Source: Escherichia coli | GTDB taxonomy: Bacteria; Pseudomonadota; Gammaproteobacteria; Enterobacterales; Enterobacteriaceae | Length of the DNA stretch: 64,000 nt | Assembly (NCBI RefSeq): GCF_009931435.1 | Contig: NZ_CP043414.1 | Direction: 5' to 3' (one strand) | Shown here: positions 691 through 20,713 of the stretch, in pieces | Position numbering within the stretch: position 1 is the first letter of the stretch | Layout: the number at the start of each line of letters is the position of its first letter | The notes under the pieces: generated by a model | Seen by the model: only the letters and a program-made list of their open reading frames with translations | Told to the model about the DNA's origin: nothing | Databases searched by the model: none | Position numbers and translations under genes: made by a program

Positions 691-3581
<2,891 letters not shown>

Positions 3582-3666
3582 CGGATTTTATCCTGTTATC
3601 AGTAGGGTAGAGGTAGTTGTTATCAGTCGACGTGACGGGAAATTGCCGATGCTGAAACGGAATTAA

Positions 3667-3754
3667 GAAACCGGTTTCACAAAATCATGAATAGTTGATA
3701 CTGATTAAGCAAGAGAGTTAATTGCTCATTTTTTATATTTGTGAAACCGGTCAC
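3667..3754. promoter_or_regulatory. Divergent ascF/ascG control region with two GalR/LacI-type operator-like palindromes
   Basis: Perfect palindrome GAAACCGGTTTC at 3667-3678 and related GTGAAACCGGTCAC at 3741-3754, in the intergenic region between divergent ascF and ascG. AscG is a LacI/GalR-family repressor. Confidence 0.35.
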
Positions 3755-3837
3755 CTGAATATTTTTCCCGCTGCTTGCGCAAGGACAATCAGCCAACGGT
3801 GCAGTACACTGCGTTGATTGCGTGTAAAGGGATGAAA

Positions 3838-4851
3838 ATGATGACGACGATGCTGGAAGTGGCGAAGCGCGCCGGGGTTTCAAAAGCGACCGTTTCCCGC
3901 GTGCTTTCAGGTAATGGCTACGTCAGCCAGGAAACTAAAGATCGCGTGTTTCAGGCGGTGGAAGAGAGCGGCTACCGCCCAAATTTGCTGGCGCGCAATC
4001 TGTCAGCGAAGAGTACCCAGACGCTGGGGCTGGTAGTGACCAACACGCTTTACCACGGCATTTATTTTAGTGAATTACTGTTTCATACCGCGAGAATGGC
4101 GGAAGAGAAAGGGCGTCAGCTGCTATTGGCAGATGGCAAACATAGCGCCGAAGAAGAACGCCAGGCGATTCAGTATCTACTGGATCTGCGCTGCGACGCC
4201 ATTATGATTTACCCGCGCTTTTTAAGCGTGGATGAGATTGATGACATCATTGATGCACACAATCAGCCGATAATGGTGCTCAATCGCCGCCTGCGCAAAA
4301 ACAGTAGCCATAGCGTCTGGTGCGATCATAAACAGACCAGCTTTAACGCCGTGGCAGAGTTGATAAACGCCGGACATCAGGAGATTGCTTTCCTTACCGG
4401 TTCGATGGATTCCCCCACCAGCATTGAACGCCTTGCCGGATATAAAGACGCGCTGGCGCAGCATGGTATTGCACTCAATGAAAAACTTATCGCTAACGGT
4501 AAATGGACGCCTGCCAGCGGGGCCGAAGGGGTAGAAACGTTGCTCGAACGTGGGGCTAAATTTAGCGCGTTAGTTGCCAGTAACGACGATATGGCGATAG
4601 GTGCGATGAAAGCGTTGCATGACCGTGGTGTAGCGGTGCCGGAGCAAGTATCGGTTATTGGATTTGATGATATCGCAATTGCCCCCTACACCGTTCCGGC
4701 GCTCTCCAGCGTAAAAATTCCGGTGACTGAGATGATTCAGGAAATAATTGGGCGGCTGATATTTATGCTCGATGGTGGTGCTTACACACCGCCGAAAACC
4801 TTCAGCGGAAAACTAATCCGCCGCGACTCACTCATTGCTCTTTCGCGATAA
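3838..4851 (+). CDS. ascG: LacI/GalR-family transcriptional repressor of the asc operon
   Basis: Track ORF 3775-4851 (TTG at 3775). K-12-like N-terminus MTTMLEVAKRAGVSKATVSRVL begins at 3838/3841; AAGGG Shine-Dalgarno 7 nt upstream of 3838. HTH plus periplasmic-binding-like fold. Confidence 0.88.
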   Translation: MMTTMLEVAKRAGVSKATVSRVLSGNGYVSQETKDRVFQAVEESGYRPNLLARNLSAKSTQTLGLVVTNTLYHGIYFSELLFHTARMAEEKGRQLLLADGKHSAEEERQAIQYLLDLRCDAIMIYPRFLSVDEIDDIIDAHNQPIMVLNRRLRKNSSHSVWCDHKQTSFNAVAELINAGHQEIAFLTGSMDSPTSIERLAGYKDALAQHGIALNEKLIANGKWTPASGAEGVETLLERGAKFSALVASNDDMAIGAMKALHDRGVAVPEQVSVIGFDDIAIAPYTVPALSSVKIPVTEMIQEIIGRLIFMLDGGAYTPPKTFSGKLIRRDSLIALSR

Positions 4852-4999
4852 ACATTGTCATCACATGTCATCGTCACTAGTGTCGATGACATCGTTTTTT
4901 CTGCACTGCAGAATTTAATTTCTTTAAATAACAATCAATTAAAAGTTGGCATGATTTGTGAATGTATCGGCGCATTAACTGTCATTGCTGGAGAATTTG

Positions 5000-17528: not shown

Positions 17529-18614
17529 ATGTTCAAGCGTCGTTATGTAACATTGCTTCCCCTTTTTGTGTTGCTTGCCGCCTGTAGCAGCAAGCCAAAA
17601 CCTACTGAGACTGAAACGACCACCGGAACGCCGTCTGGCGGCTTCCTGCTTGAGCCGCAGCACAATGTGATGCAGATGGGCGGCGATTTCGCTAACAACC
17701 CGAATGCCCAGCAGTTCATCGACAAAATGGTGAACAAACACGGTTTCAATCGTCAGCAGTTGCAGGAAATTCTCTCCCAGGCGAAACGTCTGGATTCGGT
17801 ATTGCGGCTGATGGATAACCAGGCACCAACCACATCGGTGAAGCCGCCATCAGGTCCGAACGGCGCATGGCTGCGTTATCGCAAAAAATTTATTACGCCG
17901 GACAACGTGCAAAACGGCGTGGTTTTCTGGAATCAGTATGAAGATGCGCTGAATCGCGCATGGCAAGTGTATGGCGTACCGCCAGAAATCATCGTCGGGA
18001 TTATCGGCGTCGAAACTCGCTGGGGACGCGTGATGGGGAAAACTCGTATCCTCGATGCGCTGGCAACGTTGTCATTTAACTACCCACGCCGCGCGGAGTA
18101 TTTCTCTGGTGAGCTGGAAACCTTCTTGCTGATGGCGCGCGATGAGCAGGACGATCCGCTCAATCTGAAAGGTTCCTTTGCCGGGGCGATGGGCTACGGA
18201 CAGTTTATGCCATCGTCTTATAAACAATATGCGGTAGATTTCAGCGGCGACGGGCATATCAACCTGTGGGATCCGGTTGATGCCATCGGTAGCGTGGCGA
18301 ACTATTTCAAAGCGCACGGCTGGGTGAAAGGTGATCAGGTTGCGGTAATGGCAAACGGTCAGGCTCCAGGCTTGCCAAATGGCTTCAAAACCAAGTACAG
18401 CATTTCGCAGCTTGCCGCGGCAGGTTTAACGCCACAGCAGCCGCTGGGCAACCATCAGCAGGCCAGCTTACTGCGCCTGGATGTTGGCACCGGTTACCAG
18501 TACTGGTACGGTTTGCCGAACTTCTACACTATCACCCGTTACAATCACAGCACCCATTACGCAATGGCCGTCTGGCAGTTAGGACAAGCCGTGGCACTGG
18601 CGCGCGTGCAGTAA
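17529..18614 (+). CDS. mltB: Membrane-bound lytic murein transglycosylase B (lipoprotein)
   Basis: Track ORF 17424-18614; ATG at 17529 gives MFKRRYVTLLPLFVLLAACSSK (lipobox LAAC), 361 aa. Confidence 0.9.
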   Translation: MFKRRYVTLLPLFVLLAACSSKPKPTETETTTGTPSGGFLLEPQHNVMQMGGDFANNPNAQQFIDKMVNKHGFNRQQLQEILSQAKRLDSVLRLMDNQAPTTSVKPPSGPNGAWLRYRKKFITPDNVQNGVVFWNQYEDALNRAWQVYGVPPEIIVGIIGVETRWGRVMGKTRILDALATLSFNYPRRAEYFSGELETFLLMARDEQDDPLNLKGSFAGAMGYGQFMPSSYKQYAVDFSGDGHINLWDPVDAIGSVANYFKAHGWVKGDQVAVMANGQAPGLPNGFKTKYSISQLAAAGLTPQQPLGNHQQASLLRLDVGTGYQYWYGLPNFYTITRYNHSTHYAMAVWQLGQAVALARVQ

Positions 18615-18623
18615 CTCTTTGCA

Positions 18624-18652
18624 AGAGGGAGGTTAAACTTCCCTCTGTTTTC
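18624..18652 (+). terminator. Rho-independent terminator after mltB
   Basis: Perfect 7-bp stem agaggga/tccctct with 9-nt loop followed by GTTTT, 10 nt after the mltB stop. Confidence 0.5.
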
Positions 18653-18892
18653 TTACTGTTTATTCGAATGACGTAATTGCTTGATTTTTTTCGACAGCGA
18701 TATCGCATATCCCAGGCAGACAACGCCTAACGCAGCCTGACCGAAGTCGAAAGGTTCAAGGTAGCCAGAAGATAAAATTTTACATATCACTGAAACCAGT
18801 GCGCCGATGCCACCAATGATGACCCAAATACGCATTTGCGTGGTTTGTTTAAGCACGTTTTGTGGCGTGTTATCCGTTTTCTTTGTTGCCAT
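18653..18892 (-). CDS. Hypothetical small membrane protein (79 aa)
   Basis: Internal ATG of track ORF 18653-19150 preceded by GGGAGA SD 8 nt upstream; product MATKKTDNTPQNVLKQTTQMRIWVIIGGIGALVSVICKILSSGYLEPFDFGQAALGVVCLGYAISLSKKIKQLRHSNKQ has two hydrophobic segments and a basic tail. Not recognised as any named gene. Confidence 0.35.
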   Translation of the reverse strand: MATKKTDNTPQNVLKQTTQMRIWVIIGGIGALVSVICKILSSGYLEPFDFGQAALGVVCLGYAISLSKKIKQLRHSNKQ

Positions 18893-19074
18893 TGCTATTC
18901 TCTCCCTGTGAATACATATCAATGTGAACGCGGCATGGTAGCGCTTTTTCTTTACCGACTGGTCGCAACAGTCTTTTTCCGGAACGCAACTCGTAAAATG
19001 AATCGCTCGTCCCCATCTTCTGCGGGAAAGTGCTATCTTGTCCGGCATATATTTTTTGACTGACTGAGGTTGTG

Positions 19075-19572
19075 ATGATTGACAGTGAACTGATGCAGTT
19101 AAGCGAACAGGTAGGGCAGGCGCTGAAAGCCCGTGGCGCAACCGTAACAACTGCCGAGTCTTGTACCGGCGGTTGGGTAGCGAAAGTGATTACCGATATT
19201 GCCGGTAGTTCCGCCTGGTTTGAACGCGGATTTGTCACCTACAGTAACGAAGCCAAAGCGCAGATGATCGGCGTACGCGAAGAGACGCTGGCGCAGCACG
19301 GCGCGGTGAGCGAACCCGTCGTGGTGGAAATGGCGATAGGCGCACTGAAAGCGGCTCGTGCTGATTATGCCGTGTCTATTAGTGGTATCGCCGGGCCGGA
19401 TGGCGGCAGTGAAGAGAAGCCTGTTGGCACCGTCTGGTTTGCTTTTGCCACTGCCCGTGGAGAAGGCATTACCCGGCGGGAATGCTTCAGCGGTGACCGT
19501 GATGCGGTGCGTCGTCAGGCTACTGCGTATGCATTGCAGACCTTGTGGCAACAATTTCTACAAAACACTTGA
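19075..19572 (+). CDS. pncC: NMN amidohydrolase (CinA-like C-terminal domain protein)
   Basis: ATG at 19075 (GAGG SD upstream) gives MIDSELMQLSEQVGQALKARGAT..., 165 aa; immediately upstream of recA. Confidence 0.9.
   Translation: MIDSELMQLSEQVGQALKARGATVTTAESCTGGWVAKVITDIAGSSAWFERGFVTYSNEAKAQMIGVREETLAQHGAVSEPVVVEMAIGALKAARADYAVSISGIAGPDGGSEEKPVGTVWFAFATARGEGITRRECFSGDRDAVRRQATAYALQTLWQQFLQNT

Positions 19573-20713
<1,141 letters not shown>

Follow-up and report, generated by a model that had tools for sequence, protein, structure and literature searches.

A probable small membrane protein gene at the pncC-recA-recX locus, orthologous to Salmonella STsORF92 and apparently lost from most Escherichia coli by deletion

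The spacer between mltB and pncC in a 64,000-nucleotide stretch of the Escherichia coli contig NZ_CP043414.1 (assembly GCF_009931435.1; the whole stretch is referred to as the window) contains a small open reading frame (ORF), ORF79, on the minus strand (positions 18653-18892). Based on its translation, annotation, substitution pattern, synteny and AlphaFold2 model, ORF79 is very probably a genuine separate gene that is ancestral at the pncC-recA-recX locus, is orthologous to the Salmonella small-protein candidate STsORF92, encodes a helical-hairpin protein of the inner membrane and was lost from most E. coli by deletion. The frame comprises 240 nt (80 codons including the stop codon), lies antisense to mltB, pncC and recA, and encodes a 79-amino-acid protein with two predicted helices (WP_032184982.1; MATKKTDNTPQNVLKQTTQMRIWVIIGGIGALVSVICKILSSGYLEPFDFGQAALGVVCLGYAISLSKKIKQLRHSNKQ). 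A Shine-Dalgarno (SD) sequence, GGGAGA (18901-18906, minus strand), is located 8 nt before the ATG, and an alignment of the upstream regions displays a purine-rich SD-like sequence at the equivalent site in the Salmonella, Citrobacter-like and Klebsiella orthologues. Both the antisense 79-aa frame and its SD sequence were found as given in a preliminary description of the window.

ORF79 is unlikely to be a chance frame because it remains open at the same length and in synteny across genera and because its substitutions follow a coding pattern. In pairwise Nei-Gojobori comparisons of six Escherichia alleles, the ratio of nonsynonymous to synonymous substitution rates (dN/dS) was 0.08-0.27 wherever dS > 0, and the variable sites were distributed as 8, 3, and 22 over codon positions 1, 2, and 3, respectively. 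Judged by these substitutions, ORF79 is under purifying selection as a coding sequence within Escherichia. Across genera the frame is open at 75-83 codons (one over-extended start discounted), and the upstream non-coding DNA cannot be aligned between them. Together with the two hydrophobic helices of the product, these results bear out the earlier suggestion that the spacer contains a real gene for a small membrane protein. The gene is, however, not unannotated as had been supposed, since it is already a "hypothetical protein" in RefSeq, the label used in every record examined (WP_032184982.1, WP_000985460.1, and WP_000201679.1), and its Salmonella orthologue is listed as STsORF92. The existence of the gene was thus on record, and the present analysis adds the link between the E. 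coli gene and STsORF92 and the selection acting on both.

The Salmonella match was identified by tblastn with 52.6% identity over residues 1-78 (E = 1e-18) and corresponds to the 81-aa protein WP_001519391.1. This protein is identical to the sequence of STsORF92, an 81-aa candidate of S. Typhimurium SL1344 located at 2999268-2999513 on the plus strand (Venturini et al. 2020, PMC10117436, Table S1). On the evidence of sequence and position, ORF79 is the Escherichia orthologue of STsORF92. The two are alike over their full length (~53% identity), in their position between pncC (ygaD) and mltB, in their orientation and in their layout (SD sequence, two helices, basic tail, and a stop codon beside the mltB hairpin); they differ in length (81 and 79 aa), and STsORF92 is a computational candidate with no assigned function. 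The Salmonella homologue was retrieved from NZ_LN868944.1, which is recorded in PLSDB as the 728-kb "plasmid 2" of S. Senftenberg NCTC10384; the sequence carries alaS-recX-recA-pncC-mltB-srlAEBD and is therefore a piece of chromosome.

The gene also occurs, with unchanged location and orientation, in E. albertii, E. whittamii, and two further Escherichia species (cryptic clades included), and syntenic homologues are also present in a Citrobacter-like metagenome contig and in GCA_030283865.1. In Klebsiella-type loci, a ZnuA-type ATP-binding cassette (ABC) transporter operon lies between the gene and mltB, and the divergence from pncC-recA-recX is kept. The neighbour that is constant in every orthologous locus examined is pncC, whereas the adjacency to mltB is not constant. 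Further carriers, identified by protein searches, are E. marmotae, S. enterica subspecies salamae and indica, serovar Typhi, and Citrobacter species. A second copy of the gene that appeared in a genome labelled E. coli P0063 (CP178309.1, GCA_047199125.1) was rejected: it sits in a Klebsiella-type locus with heavily fragmented genes, which points to an assembly that is probably mislabelled or of low quality.

A set of 1.84 billion cluster representatives was searched exhaustively with HMMER, which returned 19 proteins at E <= 1e-3, and the profile E values for the Citrobacter-like and other orthologues ranged from 3.7e-28 to 4.5e-21. The retrieved family members are 43-156 aa long; full-length members (75-96 aa) have one layout in common and the remainder are truncated or frameshifted. 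A word-indexed search with the family profile identified 54 clusters, all within the Enterobacterales (Escherichia, Klebsiella, Pantoea, Pectobacterium, Erwinia, and an unclassified Enterobacteriaceae bacterium). The closer relatives are the pncC-linked orthologues, and the distant ones (~24-33% identity) occur singly, scattered over unrelated neighbourhoods. Searches against curated collections returned no assignment. In Pfam, no match exceeded the cut-off: the best match of ORF79 was IncE (16.5 bits against a cut-off of 27), and the best over 16 family members was DUF981 (E = 2.2e-5, two of the 16), with the others scattered. ORF79 and the 16 family members had no NCBIfam match above the curated threshold, PADLOC gave no match, and the search of PDB sequences returned only spurious TAL-effector repeats (E >= 0.003). 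The named clusters are all called "hypothetical protein" with a single exception, a relative from Pectobacterium with the UniRef name "Holin", which is considered below.

The preliminary description regarded the spacer as enlarged. Its measured length of 460 bp (from the mltB end at 18614 to the pncC start at 19075) agrees with that description, as does the shorter spacer of ~150 bp that it gives for K-12, which is 144 bp in a K-12-like genome (mltB end 1715 and pncC start 1860 in locus positions). It is the direction of the change that has to be reversed. The long form is present in Salmonella, in Citrobacter-like and Klebsiella genomes and in other Escherichia, and the K-12 form aligns to it with a deletion of ~320 bp. 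In the global alignment of the spacers and in the multiple alignment, the segment absent from K-12-like E. coli (18648-18971) includes the whole of ORF79, its SD sequence and ~80 bp upstream, and the K-12-like genome has only GCTAATCA in its place. The mltB hairpin lies outside the deletion, as do the last ~100 bp before pncC. Since the gene is syntenic in several genera, parsimony places it in their common ancestor and makes the K-12 state a loss. As far as these alignments can tell, the long spacer is the ancestral form in the Enterobacteriaceae and the K-12 form is the product of one ~320-bp deletion, which also explains why STsORF92, although conserved in strain 14028s, was classified as "not conserved" in MG1655 (PMC10117436). 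An origin of the long spacer by insertion or from a mobile element was considered and discarded on account of the synteny of the gene across genera and the alignment of the K-12 form as a simple deletion.

The frequency of the two forms was surveyed with a 901-bp query over the spacer in 5,426 complete E. coli genomes, 5,423 of which contained matches. The query was fully covered in 573 of the 5,426 genomes; the others, among the matches listed, have the short form, seen as a two-piece alignment over 583 bp. A query restricted to 18647-18965 again identified 573 genomes, each with one copy, all of them chromosomal. The allele of the window is rare (7 of the 5,426 genomes at an identity of at least 99%), and nearly all other carriers have a single allele with ~95% identity, which is that of EC958 and of strains named O25b:H4-ST131. 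A third allele occurs in a few genomes, for example VE-T9 and XJ5.2. Nine long-form genomes that represent the three allele classes were sampled; eight contain the intact 240-nt frame, and the ninth, EC5931, has a 234-nt coding sequence for 77 aa. In NZ_CP193491.1 (E. coli O103 WL1467), the 901-bp query aligns over no more than its pncC-side third (591-899), and the mltB side was altered by something other than the common deletion.

The long-form alleles of E. coli bear the marks of recombination. The window matches K-12-like E. coli at 98-100% identity in its flanks, whereas the region ~17900-19100, which comprises the 3' end of mltB and the spacer, is only 90-96% identical to every comparator, and it follows from this contrast that the window is E. 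coli DNA with a locally foreign, mosaic allele. In strain AVS0226, the allele encodes the EC958 protein WP_000985460.1 and has 97-100% identity to the E. albertii type strain NBRC 107761 from the 3' third of mltB through ORF79 into the 5' part of pncC, a tract of ~1 kb (~1200-2250 in the AVS0226 locus, corresponding to ~18100-19150 in the window). In the shared part of the tract, AVS0226 is 87-93% identical to the K-12-like genome, and the flanks display the reverse pattern. The ORF79 genes of AVS0226 and E. albertii differ at one nucleotide (dS = 0). By these identities, the tract is a recombination tract common to the two species that carries ORF79, and the data suggest that E. coli carriers acquired or kept the gene through homologous exchange with other Escherichia, whichever its direction. 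The tract and the near-identical E. albertii allele describe a presence/absence polymorphism that homologous recombination, with mltB and pncC as its anchors, would move, and the locus may serve as a clean example of such a polymorphism shuttled among Escherichia species.

The topology of the ORF79 protein was predicted from its sequence. Hydropathy places two hydrophobic segments at residues ~22-40 and ~51-66, and the net charge is +3 for the 21 N-terminal residues, -2 for the loop and +5 for the 13 C-terminal residues, in agreement with the two hydrophobic stretches and basic C-terminus noted earlier. Under the positive-inside rule, these charges predict that both termini are cytoplasmic and that the acidic loop is periplasmic. 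AlphaFold2, run on an alignment of 16 sequences, models helices at residues 9-42 and 47-77 (mean pLDDT 63). All 16 aligned relatives have L55 and C59, and three further residues (L14, G28, and Y62) are nearly invariant. The N-terminal motif LKQTxQ(L/M)R is kept in most relatives, and the loop SSGY(L/F)EP(F/Y)DxGQ, the second-helix motif (V/G)CLGY and the tail LSKKI are common to Escherichia and Salmonella, so conservation extends beyond the hydrophobic residues of the protein.

The protein would accordingly be pictured as a helical hairpin in the inner membrane with both termini in the cytoplasm (N-in/C-in) and a short acidic periplasmic loop, SSGYLEPFDFGQ. It would most likely act inside the membrane by helix-helix association, either through self-association or with a larger membrane protein. 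Candidates for the contacts are the first helix, which is rich in glycine (IGGIGA), and two residues of the second helix (GCLGY), the invariant Cys and the near-invariant Tyr. Expression is probably weak or conditional and the gene is dispensable. Judged by its anatomy and by analogy with other small membrane proteins, ORF79 is most likely a conditionally expressed helical-hairpin accessory protein that works through helix-helix contacts; a role as a stress-response modulator is possible. MgrB, AcrZ, MgtS, and KdpF are small enterobacterial inner-membrane proteins that modulate larger membrane proteins. Like ORF79, the members of this group are small, membrane-located and encoded by stand-alone genes, evolve faster than their neighbours and are often missing from annotations or strains. 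They differ from ORF79 in that most are below 50 aa with one helix and in that the partner and the regulator of each are known, whereas ORF79 has 79 aa and two helices, and no sequence relationship between ORF79 and any of the four was detectable. The absence of the gene from the K-12 reference means that small-protein screens based on K-12 could not have found it.

Several results weigh against this interpretation. The first concerns the rate of evolution: the identity between E. coli and Salmonella is 52% for ORF79 and 92%, 92%, and 97% for PncC, MltB, and RecA, respectively, so that ORF79 diverges far faster than its neighbours. In addition, its C-terminal tail is frameshifted in some lineages and the gene is missing from ~89% of complete E. 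coli genomes. As regards expression, a scan for sigma-70-like consensus sequences found no promoter-like site on either strand of 18400-19300, and the promoter-proximal sequence differs between Escherichia and Salmonella; a by-eye alignment upstream of ORF79 has only a TACCATG block in common with Salmonella. STsORF92 was predicted by sPepFinder only, with no Ribo-seq call in three conditions, is annotated as "independent; no tss, low transcription" and does not change significantly in the re-analysed expression and fitness tables (PMC10117436). The AlphaFold2 confidence is only moderate and too low for a meaningful comparison of folds.

Many of these points would also fit a near-silent relic, that is, an ancestral frame under residual constraint whose expression is no longer useful and which is heading for loss. 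The low transcription and missing Ribo-seq call of STsORF92, the failure to find a promoter-like site, the deletion from most complete E. coli genomes, the fast divergence relative to the neighbours and the frameshift variants at a run of seven A all favour this view. It is nevertheless considered unlikely, because the dN/dS values and the codon-position pattern indicate that purifying selection is still acting within Escherichia, because a frame of the same length is open in the Escherichia, Salmonella, Citrobacter-like, and Klebsiella-type loci despite flanks that cannot be aligned, and because the loop and second-helix motifs are well conserved. The run of seven A (18685-18691, on the coding minus strand) lies in the KKI codons near the C-terminus. 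Frameshifted C-terminal tails (KKSSNY... and KKNQAIT...) occur in several protein clusters, including the 74-aa E. marmotae form, and since they diverge at the point where the run is located, the run is probably a slippage site. The 77-aa coding sequence of EC5931 belongs with these variants. Some of the variants linked to the run may be sequencing errors.

The preliminary description raised the possibility of a type I toxin, a hydrophobic peptide that depolarises the membrane and is silenced by an antisense RNA. Such toxins are usually shorter than 60 aa with a single transmembrane helix. ORF79 resembles TisB, HokB, IbsC, and LdrD in being small, hydrophobic and variable among strains, and the low transcription of the Salmonella orthologue would fit a silenced toxin. 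However, its length of 79 aa, its two helices and its conserved polar loop set it apart in size and build, and neither the structured leader nor the duplication expected of these toxins was found. The 5' leader of ORF79 has a minimum free energy of -11.3 kcal/mol compared with a mean of -13.3 kcal/mol for shuffled sequences (z = +0.74), and its centroid structure leaves the SD sequence unpaired. The promoter scan of both strands of 18400-19300 and an Rfam search of the spacer (no match at E <= 1) gave no sign of an antisense RNA, although such scans could miss a novel RNA. The gene is always single-copy and is kept vertically at one syntenic locus across genera. A type I toxin is thus extremely improbable and the suggestion was not upheld. 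Control of ORF79 by the SOS response was also considered and found no support: the sole perfect LexA box in the window is that of recA itself (19575-19590) and none is located upstream of ORF79.

The predicted topology also invites comparison with holins. In this scenario, ORF79 would be a holin- or antiholin-like protein that forms oligomers in the inner membrane and governs the access or the activity of a murein hydrolase, for example the neighbouring MltB. Two helices with an N-in/C-in topology (from hydropathy, the positive-inside rule and AlphaFold2) and a basic C-terminal tail are features of class II holins and pinholins, and the gene is convergent with mltB both here and in Salmonella. 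There is a weak match to the "holin" family PHROG 1129 (E = 0.001, 20 bits; 3 of the 16 family members at E <= 1) and one of the 16 family members matches NCBIfam holin_2 (E = 0.0077, weaker than the trusted level), to which the UniRef name of the Pectobacterium relative can be added. All of these matches are weak, however, with no clearly significant homology found, and ORF79 differs from class II holins in lacking an endolysin context. A tblastn search of 50,697 phage records with ORF79 returned only two mislabelled Salmonella-like chromosomal fragments, the same search with the Pectobacterium relative returned nothing, and a structure search against viral models gave no match below E = 2. 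The locus (srl-mltB-pncC-recA) is a core-like, syntenic housekeeping region of the chromosome with no prophage or lysis cassette, and the ABC transporter operon of the Klebsiella-type loci separates the gene from mltB, leaving pncC as the constant neighbour. A holin-like function is therefore regarded as very improbable. The two phage records (OR845620.1 and OR845594.1, "Escherichia phage ECO95 1-6-1", UNVERIFIED_ORG, ~2x coverage) carry mltB and recA-pncC and hence are Salmonella-like chromosomal fragments; they were rejected as evidence for a phage origin.

A connection with a type VI secretion system (T6SS) was suggested by distant relatives. Two Pantoea-type paralogues (27-32% identity) adjoin a block that consists of hcp, a DUF4225 gene and a 104-aa two-helix gene; the two loci have different genes on either side of the block, which is inverted in one of them. 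As a T6SS effector, DUF4225 is lytic and acts in the periplasm, and its cognate immunity is provided by a small membrane protein (PMC9765294); ORF79 could on this basis be an orphan, immunity-like protection against lytic periplasmic T6SS toxins such as the DUF4225 effectors. Against this, four other paralogues are located away from any such module, no hcp or DUF4225 gene is found near ORF79 or the pncC-linked orthologues examined, and a more obvious candidate for immunity exists in the 104-aa gene, on the strand opposite to the DUF4225 gene and abutting its 3' end. The orphan immunity function is accordingly judged hardly credible. The two blocks span positions 1869-3839 (locus L017) and 3001-4912 (locus L023), with a 4-bp overlap between the paralogue and the 104-aa gene in L023. 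The broader idea that covers both the holin-like and the immunity-like function, a conditionally expressed envelope factor tied to lysis of the wall or membrane (a holin/antiholin-like regulator or a resistance to DUF4225-type T6SS toxins), is quite improbable. If it were true, the loss of the gene from most E. coli and its re-import by recombination with sister species (e.g., in ST131) would alter how the cells lyse or how susceptible they are to contact-dependent killing.

The gene is carried by the pandemic ST131 lineage, by E. albertii and by Salmonella, and its family has no curated model. Otherwise it would be an ordinary accessory small gene that leaves the current understanding unchanged and offers a tractable small-protein candidate. 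A search of the literature for the RefSeq accessions and for features of the mltB/pncC/ygaD intergenic region returned nothing relevant besides a SoxS ChIP-seq table. That table lists a peak in SL1344 at 2,999,297-2,999,313 with the marbox-like motif GCACAAACTGAAACA, assigned to "ygaD" (PMC10268841). The peak falls within codons 10-15 of STsORF92 (~4030-4044 in the NZ_LN868944.1 locus), and by eye the motif is not kept in the E. coli allele.

The genes around ORF79 in the window are arranged as srlE-srlA on the minus strand and mltB and pncC on the plus strand, followed by recA, recX, and alaS. The mltB gene (lytic murein transglycosylase B; 17529-18614, plus strand) is convergent with ORF79 and was placed by the ORF list and by mapping the annotation of strain RMDEC465 from the Prokaryotic Genome Annotation Pipeline (PGAP) onto the window. 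The pncC gene (NMN amidohydrolase; 19075-19572, plus strand) is divergent from ORF79. Its start at 19075 is the PGAP start of RMDEC465, a strain with 99.8% identity, transferred to the window; an in-frame GTG is also present at 19072.

A G+C-rich hairpin, AGAGGGAGG-TTAAA-CTTCCCTCT (18624-18646, both strands), was identified by a terminator scan, folding and alignment, and is kept in the K-12-like genome. The proposal that this hairpin serves both strands holds in part. The stop codon of ORF79 (18655-18653) is only 6 nt away, and the folding energies are practically equal (-15.4 kcal/mol on the plus strand and -15.3 kcal/mol on the minus strand). A U-tract follows the hairpin on the plus strand only, however, which makes it the canonical intrinsic terminator of mltB and, for ORF79, at most a 3' hairpin or weak terminator.

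The pncC-proximal part of the divergent intergenic region (18972-19074, plus strand) was delimited by aligning 11 upstream regions and by the alignment with the K-12-like genome. Its blocks TTTTTCCGGAA, CTCGTAAAAT, TCCCCATCT, and GAAAGTGCTATCTT are conserved from Escherichia to Klebsiella and are present in K-12, and the region is presumably the promoter region of pncC, separate from ORF79. We take CTCGTAAAAT and TCCCCATCT to resemble a -35/-10 pair of the sigma-32 type (TTGAAA-N13-15-CCCCATNT), a candidate likeness for which no support was found in the literature. On the plus strand, CTCGTAAAAT is followed after 11 nt by TCCCCATCT and, after a further 9 nt, by GAAAGTGCTATCTT.

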